DNA of 64,000 nt, taken from NCBI GenBank assembly GCA_035480035.1, contig DATIID010000001.1:265323-329322 (forward strand). The letters are read 5' to 3'. Made by a program: the position numbers and the translations under genes. The notes beneath the pieces are model-generated. The model did no database searches and was not told the DNA's origin. It worked only from the letters and a program-made list of their open reading frames with translations. This DNA comes from Candidatus Saccharimonadales bacterium. Lineage in GTDB: Bacteria > Patescibacteriota > Saccharimonadia > Saccharimonadales > OMJO01. Below, piece by piece: positions 55,149 through 61,812 of the stretch (positions are counted from its first letter, which is position 1; every line of letters begins with the position of its first letter).

Positions 55149-56618
55149 TTAAGTTTTGGCTGTGGATAAGTCAATTATTGGTTCAAAACTGGAATTAGCC
55201 AGTAAGACTTGGTCAGTTCGATGATGATCGGCGTCAGCAGTTTGGCTAGGTTGTCGGGCAATTCGTTTGGCAGTTCGATCAATTACTTCTGTTGGTACTG
55301 CTTTTAAGCGTGCATCGAGTAGCGACCAAGACAAGTCATCCAAATCAGTTTTTAACTGTTGGGGCGTAGCGCTCTGTTGATTGTTATATAAACGATCGAC
55401 ATATTTTCGTAACTCTGTTGCATCGCCAAAGCCAAGTGAAAACGTGTCAATTTGAGGTGTTGCCTTAGCTGAATTGGAGTCGTGGGCTTCCAAACCACTA
55501 ATCAGTGGGCTAACCTCACCAGCTAGCATTGGGTCGTAAAGATGGGGATAAGGCGTTTCTTCGTAACCCGGCTCATAACCACTGAAGTAAATCGGTGAGC
55601 GACCCCGAGTTTTGGCTAGAGCACCGACGGCTATATCGGTTAAATTGACAGGATAATCCAAGTTGTTGAGTGCTAGCATATTAAATTTTGATGGTTCAGC
55701 CTCTAGACTGGCAGCCAATAATAACTGGGCTGATTCACGCGATGACTGCAAATAAAATAAAATATCGGGTCCGTGCAGCCGGATGGGTGCTTCATCATCG
55801 ATCCAACCATGTAATTTTCGGCCAAACACTGAGTTATCGGCAACATGAGTAAAACGGGCTGACGAGATTAATGTATCGCCTTCTTGGGCAGCCGTTGACA
55901 TCAACCATTCACTAGCTTTTTTGGAGGCTGCATATGTATCAGGTGAATGAGGTCGTAAGGCTTTACCAGTCGATGCGTGGACGATTTGCGGAACACTCGC
56001 CTGCTTGGCCGCTTCAATAATGTTATTCGTACCCAATATATTGGTAGTTAGTGTCTCAGGAATTTGCTGCTCAGCAATACTTGGATGTTTTTGGGCAGCA
56101 AGATGATAAATAATATCCGGCTGAGTTTGCTCAATTACTGCTTTAACAGCTTCACCGTCAGATATGTCAGCATGCCAATACTCGGCCTGAATTGTTGGAT
56201 CGGCGACCGGTGTTTTGCCGCGCGTCAAACTGATTAGACGACCTGGGTTATAGCGTTCTAGTTCATGCATTAAAGCCGTGCCAATTTGCCCAGTACCACC
56301 AGTGACTAGGATAGTTTTGCCTTGATGTTTAGTTCGAACAGCTTGCTCGTCAAGATCAATGTGACGTTCACCAATTGTTCGATAACGGTCGTACTCATTG
56401 ACGGCATGGGCTCCAGTTACGCTTACCAACCGATCCGTTAAATTGCGAAGATAATCATGCTCGAGCGGGCTTAACTCTTCTTGACTAGGCATTACCTCGA
56501 GCATTCGATCAATGATTTGACCACGATTAACCAGTTCAGCGCTATCAACTATCGGCTCAGCATTCAGATCAATAGACACTGGCTCCATAGCAAGTCTTGG
56601 TGAGGCTTCCACATTCAT
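55149..56618 (-). CDS. extended-SDR nucleotide-sugar epimerase/dehydratase (CapD/WbpM-like core) with unique N- and C-terminal extensions
   Basis: 489 aa; TILVTGGTGQIG Rossmann motif, a YAASKKA catalytic YxxxK, and about 100 aa N-terminal and about 140 aa C-terminal regions without recognised motifs. Promoter TTGACC-17-TAAAAT ends 11 nt before the ATG. Confidence 0.75.
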   Translation of the reverse strand: MNVEASPRLAMEPVSIDLNAEPIVDSAELVNRGQIIDRMLEVMPSQEELSPLEHDYLRNLTDRLVSVTGAHAVNEYDRYRTIGERHIDLDEQAVRTKHQGKTILVTGGTGQIGTALMHELERYNPGRLISLTRGKTPVADPTIQAEYWHADISDGEAVKAVIEQTQPDIIYHLAAQKHPSIAEQQIPETLTTNILGTNNIIEAAKQASVPQIVHASTGKALRPHSPDTYAASKKASEWLMSTAAQEGDTLISSARFTHVADNSVFGRKLHGWIDDEAPIRLHGPDILFYLQSSRESAQLLLAASLEAEPSKFNMLALNNLDYPVNLTDIAVGALAKTRGRSPIYFSGYEPGYEETPYPHLYDPMLAGEVSPLISGLEAHDSNSAKATPQIDTFSLGFGDATELRKYVDRLYNNQQSATPQQLKTDLDDLSWSLLDARLKAVPTEVIDRTAKRIARQPSQTADADHHRTDQVLLANSSFEPIIDLSTAKT

Positions 56619-56691: not shown

Positions 56692-56720
56692 TGGACAAAA
56701 TCGCTCATTGGTAGTATATT
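56692..56720 (+). promoter_or_regulatory. sigma70-type promoter of the LPXTG mini-gene
   Basis: TGGACA (56692-56697), 17-nt spacer, TATATT (56715-56720). The leader carries palindrome TGCGAA-T-TTCGCA (56734-56746) and SD GGAGAG. Confidence 0.6.
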
Positions 56721-56771
56721 AACTTAAAAGGGTTGCGAATTTCGCAGCTTATTTATTTAAGGAGAGATTAA

Positions 56772-56963
56772 ATGTACGGAAAAGTCGCAGGTACTTCAAC
56801 AGTTATCACCGGTGCAGCTGGTGTTAAATTATTGCCTAACACTGGCGGCACCCGCGTTATGTTTATCGTATCAGTTACTTTGTTAACTGTCGGTGTGGTA
56901 ATGTTTGCCTTATCAGCTTTCGGCGCCTTAAAGCGTCGGGTTTACAATTTTTTGTATTCTTAA
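56772..56963 (+). CDS. 63-aa protein consisting essentially of an LPXTG sortase sorting signal
   Basis: MYGKVAGTSTVITGAAGVKL-LPNTG-GTRVMFIVSVTLLTVGVVMFALSAFGAL-KRRVYNFLYS is motif, hydrophobic helix and basic tail. It has its own promoter, a strong SD and a strong terminator, but no N-terminal signal peptide. Confidence 0.7.
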   Translation: MYGKVAGTSTVITGAAGVKLLPNTGGTRVMFIVSVTLLTVGVVMFALSAFGALKRRVYNFLYS

Positions 56964-56971
56964 ATCTAAAT

Positions 56972-57022
56972 AAAAAAAACTTAGCCCAACTGTTCGACAC
57001 GATCAAGTTGGGCTATTTTATT
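56972..57022. terminator. bidirectional rho-independent terminator
   Basis: An A8 run (56972-56979) precedes the 10-bp stem TAGCCCAACT (56982-56991) / AGTTGGGCTA (57006-57015), which is followed by TTTTATT. Confidence 0.8.
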
Positions 57023-57159
57023 ACCTTGACGGCTAAGAAGGTTATATAAACCTGATACAGTAAATAAACCACGGTGATTACAAACAAACTGCCACCACCC
57101 AAGCGTTTAGCAAACCGTTTGAGACGTGGTTTTAGTTGCGTTGGTAGCTCGTAGTTCAT
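57013..57159 (-). CDS. 48-aa single-TM protein, translationally coupled to the GT2 synthase (not in the ORF track)
   Basis: Own translation: MNYELPTQLKPRLKRFAKRLGGGSLFVITVVYLLYQVYITFLAVKVIK*. The ATG overlaps the GT2 TGA (ATGA, 57156-57159), and the stop lies in the terminator stem. Confidence 0.55.
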   Translation of the reverse strand: MNYELPTQLKPRLKRFAKRLGGGSLFVITVVYLLYQVYITFLAVKVIK

Positions 57160-58457
57160 ATAGCTACATCCTTCAAGGCATTGGCATCAAGTGCAAAACG
57201 ACGACCTTCGGTGCCCCAACCAACAGTGTGGCTTTTGAAACGCTTTAAGATGATAATTTCGATAAATGCCCAGATAAAAATGCCCATCTCAACCCACCTC
57301 AGAAAGTAGTAGTACGGTAAGGCTTTAAGAATTGATAGACGTTTAGTCACAGTCGACGAAAAGATAGCCAGAACTGATACAACTAAGAAATCAGCTGCTA
57401 AAACACCTAACAATATCTCCCAACGACCGGTTTTATAGATCAGATAAGGCACAACTATACCCATTTCAATGACATAGGTTAAGAATTGGAACAAGACGTA
57501 GCCAATACTTAGATCTATCAACTGCAAACGTTGGCCAATCTTATAATTACGAATGCATTGGAAGAAACCGCGTTGCCACCTCAAAGTTTGTTTACAAAAA
57601 TCGCGTAGCGTTTGCGGATCCTGGGTATAATTAACTGCTTGAGTAATGAACATAATACGGCCCAGTTTCTTGCGGTGAATCTGCAGCGTCAGGTCAAAAT
57701 CTTCGGTGATGGTACCAGTCAAAAAGTCTAGTTTGCTCAAAATATCAGTCCGAAAACAGGTGGTTGGTCCAGGCAAAACCGCAATCATGCCAAACCATGA
57801 CTGCCAACGCCGGATAACTTGCTGGCCGTAAGTGTAAGAAAAAGCCCGGTAGTTGGCAATCCAGTTGCCGCGCAAACTCTGGACAAAGCCAACAGCTGCC
57901 ACATATTTACCTTCTTTTAGAGCAGCTCGATAGATATTAAAATAATTTTCACCAAAGACGCTGTCAGCATCGCTAACATGTAGCCATTGATAACGTTTTT
58001 CAAAGTCAAAATGTTTAATGGCATGATAAATCGCCTTGGCTTTACCGCTACGCTCCACTGTTAACACGTTACTTTCACCGAGCATTGCGACAGCCTGAAA
58101 CCATGTGGCATCAGTCGAGGCATCATCGACAACGTAAATATCGGCTTTGTCCATCCCGGCATTTATGGCCGTTTGAATGGTAGTTTGGATGATTAACTCT
58201 TCGTTATGGCCAGGCAGTAATAGTGCTAATTTACGTTTTTCGGGTTGAGTTGGCTTGTTGAAGCCGACAAAGGTAGCTAACCGTTTAATCCAGCCATTAT
58301 TATCAAAGTTACGAACCGAACGCAGTGGCGGCAACGAATAGTTATGCCTGGGTAAATCGGCTTGACCACGGCTTGAAACATACCTTTCATCAGGTACAGA
58401 GAAATCATTGCGACGCCGAATTGCAACCGGTTCGCGCACCTCATAGCCACTATCCAT
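57156..58457 (-). CDS. processive family-2 glycosyltransferase (PgaC/IcaA/chitin-synthase-like)
   Basis: 433 aa; VVDDASTD, the HVSDADS (DxD) motif, TEDFDLT, and KQTLRWQRG (the QxxRW motif), plus C-terminal TM helices. A TATAAT box lies 7 nt before the ATG. Confidence 0.85.
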   Translation of the reverse strand: MDSGYEVREPVAIRRRNDFSVPDERYVSSRGQADLPRHNYSLPPLRSVRNFDNNGWIKRLATFVGFNKPTQPEKRKLALLLPGHNEELIIQTTIQTAINAGMDKADIYVVDDASTDATWFQAVAMLGESNVLTVERSGKAKAIYHAIKHFDFEKRYQWLHVSDADSVFGENYFNIYRAALKEGKYVAAVGFVQSLRGNWIANYRAFSYTYGQQVIRRWQSWFGMIAVLPGPTTCFRTDILSKLDFLTGTITEDFDLTLQIHRKKLGRIMFITQAVNYTQDPQTLRDFCKQTLRWQRGFFQCIRNYKIGQRLQLIDLSIGYVLFQFLTYVIEMGIVVPYLIYKTGRWEILLGVLAADFLVVSVLAIFSSTVTKRLSILKALPYYYFLRWVEMGIFIWAFIEIIILKRFKSHTVGWGTEGRRFALDANALKDVAI

Positions 58458-59097: not shown

Positions 59098-59733
59098 TTA
59101 GAGGCTTGTAACACTTTTTTGCGTGCTGTCTGACAGCGTATAAGTCAAAGTAAATTTAGTACACTCGTTACCGGGTGTGTTGTCGCATGCCGAGCCATCA
59201 TCTTTGATGGGCGCATAGCCATACTGAGTTGTGGTCGAGGAAGCCAGGAATTGGTTCGACGTACCGTCAGGGTCTTTTGTTGCTTCTTTGTCTAATCCCT
59301 TGAGGTTGGCAGCTATCCAGGCAGCGTCATTCATGTTAGCGAAGGTTGGGTACATCGCATTGTTAGCATTGAAAGTCTCTAGGTGACTGGCCACGGCTTT
59401 GATGTCGGTTTCTCGCTCTGTGTCTTTAGCGTTAGCAGCTATTAGGTCACCAGAGCTAGTATCAGTCGCTGTATTCGCGGCCGATTGTAAATCTTGAATT
59501 TTTTTATCATCGTCCGATAGCTGTTTATTAAGTTTGGTAATAGTGCCGTTTAGGTCATTAACTTTGGACTGTTGCATGAACCAAACACCACCTATGGCCG
59601 CCGCAATTAACACCACGACGAGCACGATCATGATTAGTTTCTTCTTGGATTTGGGCGGTGCCGGGTAGCCACCAGGTGGCGGGAAACCATCAGACGCATA
59701 GCCGTATTGTTGAAAGTTTTTTTGTGGGTTCAT
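59098..59733 (-). CDS. bitopic membrane protein with a pilin/pseudopilin-head-like ectodomain (paralog A)
   Basis: A P/G/Y-rich N-terminus, one TM and a coiled linker are followed by ERETDIKAVASHLETFNANNAMYP...KDP...YGY...C-x7-C-TKFTLTYTL. Start moved to ATG 59733 (GAGGT SD, TATAAT at fwd 59755-59750); the track GTG at 59748 is too close to the -10. Confidence 0.65.
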   Translation of the reverse strand: MNPQKNFQQYGYASDGFPPPGGYPAPPKSKKKLIMIVLVVVLIAAAIGGVWFMQQSKVNDLNGTITKLNKQLSDDDKKIQDLQSAANTATDTSSGDLIAANAKDTERETDIKAVASHLETFNANNAMYPTFANMNDAAWIAANLKGLDKEATKDPDGTSNQFLASSTTTQYGYAPIKDDGSACDNTPGNECTKFTLTYTLSDSTQKSVTSL

Positions 59734-59833
59734 TTTTACCTCTAGCACGATTATACCTTAAGCACTATAATTGCGTAACAATTTGCTATAGCCGTCAGTT
59801 ATCGTTGATGTTAGAGTAGTCCTAGGAACTATC

Positions 59834-60646
59834 ATGGATCAAGATGATTCACCTCTAGGCGGACCTTTGGAATTACCCGGCGAAGAATCGCCGTCGACTC
59901 ACCCTGTTAATAAATCACCACGCCGCTTTAACCCGAAAATATTAATCATTATTCTATTAGTCATTGTCGGCTTAGCTGGAGTTGGTTTTGGCGCTTATAA
60001 ACTCATGCATAAGTCGAAACCGAAAAATACTACTCCTACTTCGACAAGTTCTAACTCCACCACCACTTCTCAAGAGCCAACAGTCACCGATGTACCGACC
60101 GTAACCGGCACCAAGGACTATAAAAATACTAGTCTGGGTGTCGAGCTGACCTATCCGGATGGCTGGCAAATCACCGTCAGCGACAAGGCATCTGACGGCA
60201 TCAAACTAGAATCCCCAACCTTTAATTATGAAACCACCGATGTCGGTATCGTATCGGGGAATTTTCGAGTCTATATTCGAGCTGGGGCACGTCCAGTCGA
60301 TAGCAAGTACATCGGTCGCGGCGTGGCCATAACAAGCTCACAGCCTTTAACCTACACCTCGCCATTAGCCACCCAGCGCAAAACTACTAATTTATCACTG
60401 TTTGGTCTCGACACACCCGACCAGTTCGCCTTTTTCTTGATTGCCGGTAATTTCAACCTGAAAAAGGGCGACACGTTGGGCCCAAACTACGGTAAAGAAC
60501 CAGAAACTATTTTAGTCACCGGCGGTTATTCAGCCAAAGAGTTAAAAGATGATTTTCAAACTAACCAAGTACCGTTAAGTAGTTATAGTAGTACTAATGC
60601 TTACAAACAAGCCATCGATATCGTTAAATCTTTGAAACTTCAGTAA
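59834..60646 (+). CDS. hypothetical bitopic surface protein
   Basis: 270 aa with an acidic N-terminus, a TM (ILIIILLVIVGLAGVGFGAY), an S/T-rich linker, and a beta-rich ectodomain containing YPDGW. Confidence 0.6.
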   Translation: MDQDDSPLGGPLELPGEESPSTHPVNKSPRRFNPKILIIILLVIVGLAGVGFGAYKLMHKSKPKNTTPTSTSSNSTTTSQEPTVTDVPTVTGTKDYKNTSLGVELTYPDGWQITVSDKASDGIKLESPTFNYETTDVGIVSGNFRVYIRAGARPVDSKYIGRGVAITSSQPLTYTSPLATQRKTTNLSLFGLDTPDQFAFFLIAGNFNLKKGDTLGPNYGKEPETILVTGGYSAKELKDDFQTNQVPLSSYSSTNAYKQAIDIVKSLKLQ

Positions 60647-61146: not shown

Positions 61147-61812
61147 TTACCTTGTGCTAGTACTGTCGGCCGGCGCTGAAGTTGGATTACTCTTAACACT
61201 TTTCTGAGTGCCGTTTTCTAGAGTGTACGTTAGGGTGAATGTCACACAGGCGTTAGTGTCGCCATTGTCGCAATCTTGACCGCTTGAATTCAGCGGACGA
61301 TAGCCGTATTGGCCTTTGACTGAGGTTTCGGCAAAATCGTAACCAGATCCAGATGGATCGCGTGTCAATTCTTTTTGCAGACCCGGCATGCTATTAGATA
61401 TCCATGTGGGATCGTTTAAATCAGCGAGTGCTGGATAGTAGGTGTTATTTTGGTAGAAAAGTTCAAGTAAAGTATCGATTGACTTTATATCTGTTACGCG
61501 CTCAGAATCCCGACCAGCAGCTGTTGGATCTTTTTGGCTAGTCGGGGTGTTTGAAGCCGCTGGATTTTGATTCCCAGTTGAATTGGATGACGTATTGTTT
61601 TTATTTCCAGACGCTAGTGCCCAAACTACTCCTGCGGCCAAGATCAACAAGAGTACGGCGGCTACGATAATGAATTTTTTTGGAGATCTCGACTTACCCA
61701 TTTGAGAGTAGGCTATCGACGGTTGTGAAGAATCGGGACTAGTTGGTAATGCCTGTCCGCTAGAGTATTGAGACATGTCGTCAATAGGATTCTTGGCTTT
61801 GTTATTAAGCAT
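61147..61812 (-). CDS. bitopic membrane protein with a pilin/pseudopilin-head-like ectodomain (paralog B)
   Basis: 221 aa; same architecture as 59098-59733: SERVTDIKSIDTLLELFYQNNTYYP...RDP...YGY...C-x7-C-VTFTLTYTL...TQKSV. A TAATAT box lies 6 nt before the ATG. Confidence 0.65.
   Translation of the reverse strand: MLNNKAKNPIDDMSQYSSGQALPTSPDSSQPSIAYSQMGKSRSPKKFIIVAAVLLLILAAGVVWALASGNKNNTSSNSTGNQNPAASNTPTSQKDPTAAGRDSERVTDIKSIDTLLELFYQNNTYYPALADLNDPTWISNSMPGLQKELTRDPSGSGYDFAETSVKGQYGYRPLNSSGQDCDNGDTNACVTFTLTYTLENGTQKSVKSNPTSAPADSTSTR

Follow-up and report, generated by a model that had tools for sequence, protein, structure and literature searches.

A family of mini-LPXTG peptides in Saccharibacteria: candidate signal-peptide-free sortase substrates linked to exopolysaccharide synthesis

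This report concerns a small gene in a 64-kb stretch of DNA (64 000 nucleotides, hereafter the window) from a metagenome-assembled genome (MAG) of a Candidatus Saccharimonadales bacterium (contig DATIID010000001.1 of assembly GCA_035480035.1). The gene, which we call mini-LPXTG, encodes a protein that consists of a short N-terminal segment (N-segment), an LPNTG motif, a hydrophobic transmembrane (TM) helix and a basic tail. It lies on the plus strand between a divergent CapD-like short-chain dehydrogenase/reductase (SDR) gene and a convergent pair, an open reading frame (ORF) of 48 residues followed by the gene for a processive glycosyltransferase of family 2 (GT2), all three neighbours being on the minus strand (Table 1). 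We consider it probable, from sequence comparison, that mini-LPXTG is a real, translated gene whose product is a dedicated sortase substrate, made without a signal peptide and coupled to exopolysaccharide synthesis, and that the copy in the window belongs to a reduced form of the system.

An earlier, sequence-only reading of this DNA had described a stand-alone gene with its own promoter, Shine–Dalgarno sequence and bidirectional terminator, and a product composed of a sorting signal preceded by some 20 residues; each of these elements, including the motif, the TM helix and the basic tail, was found where that reading had placed it. The promoter matches the consensus at 10 of 12 positions, and its −35 and extended −10 elements (TAGTATATT) are unchanged in the orthologous loci L001 and L002, despite only 65% identity between the proteins. 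The terminator is common to mini-LPXTG and the convergent GT2 operon. Its hairpin has a predicted folding energy of −18.7 kcal/mol (z = −6.0) on the plus strand and −18.0 kcal/mol (z = −3.6) on the minus strand, the stop codon of the 48-residue ORF lies within the stem, and the L001 ortholog has a hairpin of other sequence at the same position. The leader is predicted to fold with −12 kcal/mol (z = −3.2), and a search of Rfam with its stem-loop gave no match. The leader palindrome that had been reported is indeed present, but its exact sequence is not conserved: L001 and L002 carry another palindrome, TGAAG-A-CTTCA, at the aligned position (about 2860–2880 in L001), beside a 12-nt insertion. 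In the two lineages compared, the structure of the leader seems to be kept rather than its sequence.

A TAA stop codon stands directly 5′ of the mini-LPXTG ATG and rules out any in-frame extension upstream. The gap to the divergent CapD-like gene measures just 153 nt, too little to hide a longer reading frame. No other C-terminal signal of the LPXTG type occurs in the window. The identical protein is deposited as HSX44831.1, annotated 'hypothetical protein VLF39_01805', and the ORF is also called as a gene in a second assembly, GCA_964572305.1.

Table 1. Coordinates of mini-LPXTG, its expression signals and its immediate neighbours in the window.
Feature	Position	Strand	Details
CapD-like SDR gene	55149..56618	−	Polysacc_synt_2/Epimerase Pfam domains; divergent from mini-LPXTG
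σ70-like promoter	56692..56720	+	TGGACA (56692–56697), 17-nt spacer, TATATT (ends 56720)
Leader stem-loop	56730..56750	+	near the predicted 5′ end; GGGTTGCGAA-T-TTCGCAGCTT; includes the palindrome TGCGAA-T-TTCGCA (56734–56746)
Shine–Dalgarno sequence	56761–56766	+	GGAGAG, 5 nt ahead of the ATG
mini-LPXTG gene	56772..56963	+	63 residues; translation identical to that of the sequence-only reading
N-segment of the protein			residues 1–20, MYGKVAGTSTVITGAAGVKL
LPNTG motif	56832–56846	+	residues 21–25
Hydrophobic helix	56856–56930	+	about residues 29–53
Basic tail	from 56931	+	begins KRR
Bidirectional intrinsic terminator	56982..57015	both	10–11 bp hairpin, A-run before, U-run after
Small membrane ORF	57013..57159	−	48 residues; ATG overlaps the GT2 stop codon (ATGA)
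Processive GT2 polysaccharide synthase gene	57156..58457	−	Pfam Glyco_trans_2_3, Glyco_tranf_2_3 and Glycos_transf_2; convergent with mini-LPXTG

A first indexed search for relatives of the protein returned only two, both with the N-terminus MYGKV and the motif LPNTGG. Two broader searches uncovered a large family. A three-sequence profile run with HMMER against all 1.84 billion cluster representatives (E ≤ 1e-3) recovered 92 clusters at 50% identity, all but one of them 53–96 residues long. At 90% identity, an indexed search with an 87-member alignment returned at least 621 clusters, and the best 120 of these all measure 57–65 residues. The longer HMMER members carry an internal MY exactly at the family start, and for this reason we regard their starts as over-called; once trimmed, the homologs are all about 55–65 residues in length. 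The sole exception in length, P0079 (131 residues), begins as a mini-LPXTG protein and then continues into a stretch that looks like the N-terminal anchor of a sortase (MKKIKPTVLLLIIGLILMLGGG), and is probably a frameshift or assembly artefact that fuses two neighbouring genes. No homolog among the 92 HMMER clusters or among the best 120 of the at least 621 forms the tail end of a large surface protein. The main scenario that the sequence-only reading had named as refuting its proposal is thereby removed.

Annotation of the family is limited to 'hypothetical protein' or a generic LPXTG protein, and sequence searches of the PDB with the family profile found nothing meaningful. The taxon labels are Saccharibacteria, Saccharimonadia or Patescibacteria, apart from 'Chlamydiae bacterium', 'Pedobacter sp.' and 'Candidatus Limnocylindria' (L007, which is CAJCIR010000058.1, together with P0261 and P0289). 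The protein labelled Pedobacter is relabelled as Saccharibacteria in nr, and all three odd labels look like errors of binning or labelling and not like a wider taxonomic range.

Members of the family share more than a motif. They start with MY in 67% of cases and with MS in 23%, giving the signature M[YS]G, and in all 21 distinct members examined a purine-rich, GGAG-like or GAGG-like Shine–Dalgarno sequence lies about 3–10 nt upstream of this conserved start. The N-segment is 14–30 residues long (median 20); 73% of its residues are G, A, V, T or S, with Gly accounting for 21% and Ser plus Thr for 21%, and in 38 of 87 members it contains no charged residue. It runs into the extended motif A-G-[VIA]-A-[VLI]-LPNTG-G-N, which is followed by the TM helix and the basic tail. 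The exact sequence LPNTG occurs in 60 of 91 members, M1, L21, P22 and T24 are the only invariant columns of the 87-member alignment, and a glycine in the middle of the helix, G41, is kept in at least 90% of members. Compared with its nearest ortholog (in L001, at 65% amino acid identity), the window gene has a dN/dS of 0.12 overall and of 0.05 over residues 1–26, that is, the N-segment and motif, at a saturated dS of about 1.9. The size and uniform length of the family, the low dN/dS, the conservation of expression signals in orthologs and the independent gene calls together lead us to conclude that the ORF is a real gene, belonging to a large, uncurated family of proteins of about 55–65 residues that has been seen so far essentially only in Saccharibacteria (Patescibacteria).

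The sequence-only reading had also remarked that no signal peptide is present at the N-terminus, and this appears to hold family-wide. With 20 residues ahead of the motif, a mean Kyte–Doolittle hydropathy of 0.84, as against 2.51 for the TM helix (best 19-residue window), and in most cases no basic n-region, the N-segment has the features neither of a Sec signal peptide nor of a passenger domain. The average number of Lys plus Arg residues is 0.48 for the N-segment as against 3.28 for the tail; in 86 of 87 members the tail is the richer of the two. Because of this positive-inside bias, we predict an N-out/C-in topology.

The genomic surroundings of the family were compared, by tblastn and inspection of ORFs, in loci obtained in three ways: through similarity to the mini-LPXTG protein, by extension from the window contig and through sortase homology alone. 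Soil and peat are the sampled habitats from which the loci derive. The first of these searches used a seq­uence alignment of seven members, whose restrictive pattern biases the sample towards members containing LPNTGG; L024 and L025 proved to be spurious short matches. The mini-LPXTG gene is followed on its own strand, after some 20–120 nt, by a sortase gene of about 190–215 codons in 19 of the 22 informative lineages. The association also holds in reverse: all three sortases picked by homology alone have a family member of 55–61 residues directly upstream, with an LPHTG or LPDTG motif. The sequence-only reading had suggested looking in relatives for homologous mini-ORFs beside GT2 genes. Such ORFs are present, most of them with a dedicated sortase gene directly downstream.

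The cassette sortases match Pfam PF04203; a TM anchor lies at their N-terminus, and their His/Cys/Arg triad is invariant. Their best scores against the NCBIfam class models (A–F and GN) are 29–57 bits, compared with cutoffs of 140–166, the cutoff of the generic model TIGR01076 is passed by one of three tested, and their matches to class A, C, D and E sortases in the PDB are similarly weak (E about 1e-9 to 1e-10). Those linked to mini-LPXTG (in L004, L007–L016, L019, L022, L029 and L031–L035) fall in a clade of at least 223 clusters, and may on this sequence evidence represent an unclassified sortase class.

The association with a polysaccharide synthase, which had likewise been proposed, is well borne out. 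The GT2 gene is convergent with mini-LPXTG in the window, and in every relative's locus with enough sequence a processive GT2 gene adjoins the mini-LPXTG gene or the sortase gene. It is co-directional with them, starting near or overlapping the sortase stop codon, in L004, L009–L015, L019, L022 and L031, and convergent in L007, L008, L016 and L032–L035. In 13 lineages a large extracellular deacetylase of carbohydrate esterase family 4 (CE4; PF01522, often with CBM_4_9 or Big_7 domains) is encoded within about 4 kb.

We favour the view that the mini-LPXTG peptide is a sortase substrate because the architecture of a sorting signal is combined here with reciprocal linkage to a sortase that looks catalytically intact, to a GT2 and often to a CE4. 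We suppose that the peptide would insert into the membrane N-out/C-in without a signal peptide, by translocation of its N-tail in the manner of the Pf3 coat protein (YidC-type), thereby placing LPNTG at the outer face of the membrane. Pf3 coat and M13 procoat are small phage membrane proteins that are inserted independently of Sec through YidC; like mini-LPXTG, they have an N-tail that is short and carries little charge, one TM helix and a C-tail that is basic, and they serve as an example of signal-peptide-free N-out insertion. They differ from it in the lack of any sequence relationship, in being of phage and not cellular origin and in having no processing motif. Gene linkage and conservation of the motif suggest that the membrane-anchored sortase encoded downstream in most lineages would then cleave between Thr and Gly (LPNT|G), giving an acyl-enzyme that carries the N-terminal peptide of about 24 residues. 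A cassette sortase, for example that of L007 or L016, would accordingly be expected to cleave the peptides AGVALLPNTGGN and Ac-TGAAGVALLPNTGGNR.

What might follow is more speculative. The peptide could be moved to an amine acceptor, either a peptidoglycan precursor or a partly de-N-acetylated polymer of the N-acetylglucosamine type made by the GT2 and CE4, and would so become physically coupled to the exopolysaccharide layer. If the acceptor were peptidoglycan, transfer might come after glycosylation of the Ser/Thr-rich segment of the peptide. The Actinomyces protein GspA, reportedly a glycosylated surface protein that the housekeeping sortase attaches to the wall, would be a loose precedent. 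Alternatively, the acceptor might be the glucosamine amines that a CE4 would generate on the GT2 polymer. The specific proposal of peptide–glycan ligation, in which the sortase joins the Thr carboxyl of the G/A/V/T/S-rich peptide to amines freed by CE4 on the GT2 polymer, or anchors a glycan-bearing peptide to peptidoglycan, and thus creates a covalently peptide-decorated or wall-tethered exopolysaccharide on the saccharibacterial surface with a possible role in attachment to host bacteria, we put forward as a doubtful conjecture.

Several observations weigh against a role as sortase substrate. The N-out insertion without a signal peptide is something that we infer from charge bias and precedent alone. 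The window protein scores below the curated cutoffs for LPXTG signals, with 12.7 bits against 15.9 for TIGR01167 and 11.7 bits against 20 for PF00746. Searches of the window by tblastn with three divergent cassette sortases gave matches at chance level only, and with cassette sortases and CE4s neither a sortase nor a CE4 was found in the window plus 10 kb beyond each end (about 84 kb). None of the best 120 matches to the sortase clade lies on a contig of this genome, and none of four named sortases from third-party annotation (TPA) has an accession near HSX44831. Finally, mini-LPXTG stands beside GT2 without a sortase in three lineages, namely the window, its closest relatives L001–3, and L030, which fits a role centred on GT2 equally well. 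Of the best sortase candidates in the window, one is an FKBP isomerase, another a malic enzyme and a third an ORF without Pfam match; all were rejected.

With no sortase in these 84 kb or among those matches, the sortase step is therefore a proposal for this organism. The cassette in the window is a reduced one, in which mini-LPXTG, GT2 and the 48-residue partner ORF are kept and no sortase or CE4 is nearby; its arrangement is that of L008 and L016 minus the sortase, with the SDR gene where CE4 often sits. All three lineages without a sortase also lack a nearby CE4, against a background CE4 frequency of about 70%. This joint loss is a suggestive but weak hint that the two enzymes act together and were lost together. 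That the motif is under strong purifying selection speaks for its continued use in the window lineage, and, given that no sortase is nearby, either a sortase encoded elsewhere or a sortase-independent role with GT2 would account for it.

Such a role forms the core of an alternative that we hold to be possible, though not likely: the peptide could be a membrane-resident accessory or regulatory subunit of the GT2 or of the sortase, acting as a pseudo-substrate, a plug or a partner like SafA, PgaD or IcaD, with LPNTG as a docking motif or its cleavage as an on/off switch. Adjacency to GT2 is more universal than adjacency to a sortase, as the three lineages described above illustrate, and mini-LPXTG is under strong selection even where no sortase is nearby. 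The mid-helix glycine and the conserved tail suggest packing of the helix with a partner, and in SafA a small TM protein is already known that binds a sortase to which it is genetically linked (PMC9282373). However, conservation is highest in the cleavage motif, with L, P and T invariant, together with the segment preceding it, the three-part build is precisely the one that a sorting signal has, and the window-type GT2 is already paired with a conserved ORF of 46–53 residues of its own. The FPW motif of SafA is absent, moreover, and both gene order and predicted topology are opposite to those of SafA. A different membrane arrangement is a helical hairpin, in which the N-segment would be an uncleaved, signal-like first span with its N-terminus inside, LPNTG would occupy a short external loop as in M13 procoat, and the sortase would excise the first span. 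The N-segment is rich in G, A, V and L, with a mean hydropathy of 1.43 over the best 12-residue window, and about a third of members have K or R near the N-terminus, both of which would suit this arrangement; a segment of such length and Gly and Ser/Thr content, far less hydrophobic than the TM helix and in most members without a positively charged n-region, makes it distinctly unlikely.

Two further explanations fare worse. The sequence-only reading had allowed for a polymerisable unit. As such a unit, or mini-pilin, the peptide would have its Thr joined by the sortase to a Lys (for example K4 of YGK) or to the N-terminus of the next peptide. The window protein and some relatives do begin with MYGK, which is loosely like the YPK pilin motif, and a dedicated sortase recalls the pilus-specific sortases. 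Nevertheless, only 30 of 91 members have a Lys before the motif, the N-segment is uncharged in 38 of 87, and neither K4 nor K19 is conserved. The N-terminus is MY, from which the Met is expected to be retained, or MS, and not Gly; there is no Ig-like (CnaB/CnaA) domain nor room for one; and the sortase is not classed as C. We therefore disfavour polymerisation as very improbable. The gene could also be a pseudogene remnant, the sorting signal left behind by a large LPXTG adhesin that has decayed. In draft genomes a short LPXTG ORF is frequently a fragment, and the curated LPXTG models match only weakly here, but the stop codon directly before the ATG, the lack of room before the divergent gene and the absence of any long homolog effectively refute this origin, and a length of about 55–65 residues with a conserved MY/MS start, a Shine–Dalgarno sequence and a dN/dS of 0.12 makes it barely conceivable. 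On this point the sequence-only reading, which had argued against a truncated adhesin, was right.

Placed beside known systems, the proposed substrate shares with canonical LPXTG signals (TIGR01167/PF00746) the order of motif, hydrophobic helix and basic tail, and its relatives encode an adjoining sortase with the His/Cys/Arg triad. Canonical substrates have a Sec signal peptide and a passenger domain, whereas the mini-LPXTG protein has neither; the family has in addition an extended conserved context around the motif (AG[VI]A[VL]-LPNTG-GN) and a conserved glycine in the TM helix. TIGR01167 is matched at E < 0.01 by 12 of 87 members. Small proteins with a sortase motif are already a recognised category, since NCBIfam contains a curated family of this kind, NF058583 (LAXTG_small_WW, 'LAXTG motif-containing small protein'). 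Its motif is LAXTG and not LPNTG, and its hidden Markov model gave no match to the window protein at E ≤ 1 and a weak one (E = 0.0038) to a single member out of 87.

The closest conceptual analogue is the PEP-CTERM/exosortase (EpsH) system, in which one locus brings together a sorting signal at the C-terminus, a transpeptidase dedicated to sorting and genes for exopolysaccharide (PMC1569441), together with the GT2s associated with XrtG and XrtP. The two systems are unrelated in sequence, though the window GT2 weakly matches the models for the XrtG- and XrtP-associated GT2s (E about 5e-9). PEP-CTERM combines an exosortase of eight TM segments with a PEP motif on proteins that nearly all have a signal peptide, in contrast to the sortase, LPNTG motif and missing signal peptide of the mini-LPXTG system, which also differs in its one-to-one pairing and in belonging to organisms that are expected to have no outer membrane. 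SafA, a 52-residue sortase-associated membrane protein of Actinobacteria, is encoded downstream of the housekeeping sortase gene srtA, adopts an N-in/C-out topology, works through an FPW motif on the exoplasmic side and does not serve as a substrate (PMC9282373). It is like mini-LPXTG in being a very small single-pass membrane protein linked genetically to a sortase; mini-LPXTG is encoded upstream of the sortase, is predicted to be N-out/C-in, has no FPW and carries a cleavage motif. The PgaABCD and IcaADBC systems resemble the cassette in outline only, with a processive GT2, a tiny membrane partner ORF and, in the relatives, a CE4, but they contain neither a sortase nor an LPXTG peptide. The 'Pam' pili of the candidate phyla radiation (CPR) are assembled by donor-strand exchange, and were for this reason ruled out as a related system. 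We found no published description of the mini-LPXTG family or its cassette in the literature on sortases and LPXTG proteins of Saccharibacteria/Patescibacteria, on small LPXTG proteins and on sortases in connection with poly-N-acetylglucosamine (PNAG).

In the textbook view, the substrates of sortases are secreted proteins that have a signal peptide and carry a passenger domain. The members of the mini-LPXTG family, comprising at least 621 clusters, consist only of a sorting signal and a largely uncharged peptide of 14–30 residues, and yet they have a sortase of their own within a polysaccharide-synthesis cassette. Sorting by sortases is itself well known; what the sequences point to as new is a minimal, signal-peptide-free substrate coupled to polysaccharide synthesis. 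If this is true, there would be a route to sortase that bypasses the signal peptide, and the family would offer a minimal natural sortase substrate along with a new sortase clade, potentially useful for ligation by 'sortagging'. The surface biology of Saccharibacteria underlies their epibiotic lifestyle and is largely uncharted, and the cassette would provide a testable link between sortase chemistry and assembly of exopolysaccharide and cell envelope in these organisms.

The neighbours of mini-LPXTG in the window deserve some further description. The CapD-like SDR gene occupies the slot that is filled by the CE4 deacetylase gene in many relatives. The GT2 has the motifs expected of a processive enzyme, D, DxD, ED and QxxRW, in the form of DD111, D163AD, E252D and Q290TLRW. 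Its best NCBIfam match is PgaC_IcaA (TIGR03937), at 75 bits against an equivalog cutoff of 422 bits; it is therefore a related processive GT2. Orthologs with 60–68% identity flank the mini-LPXTG gene in L001, L002, L007, L008 and L016. The 48-residue ORF, which is called as a gene in GCA_964572305.1, matches PgaD/IcaD in its position beside the synthase. It belongs to a family of 46–53 residues whose members have one TM helix behind a basic N-terminus and share the motif [FV]Y[LI][LF]YQ. Homologs lie directly 3′ of the window-type GT2 gene in L007, L008 and L016, and a further one is present in L029, where the contig stops before any GT2.

A few kilobases from the GT2 gene, the window encodes two paralogous membrane-anchored proteins of about 215–220 residues (59098..59748 and 61147..61812, both on the minus strand). 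They are 48% identical over their C-terminal 128 residues, and one of them has a weak match to the pseudopilin Pfam family T2SSG. On the plus strand, 59834..60646 encodes a secreted or anchored protein of 270 residues without a known domain. A distant homolog of this protein (23% identity, E = 1e-6) adjoins the window-type GT2 gene in L008 (8517..9347, minus strand), and the 270-residue protein may be another conserved neighbour of this type of GT2.

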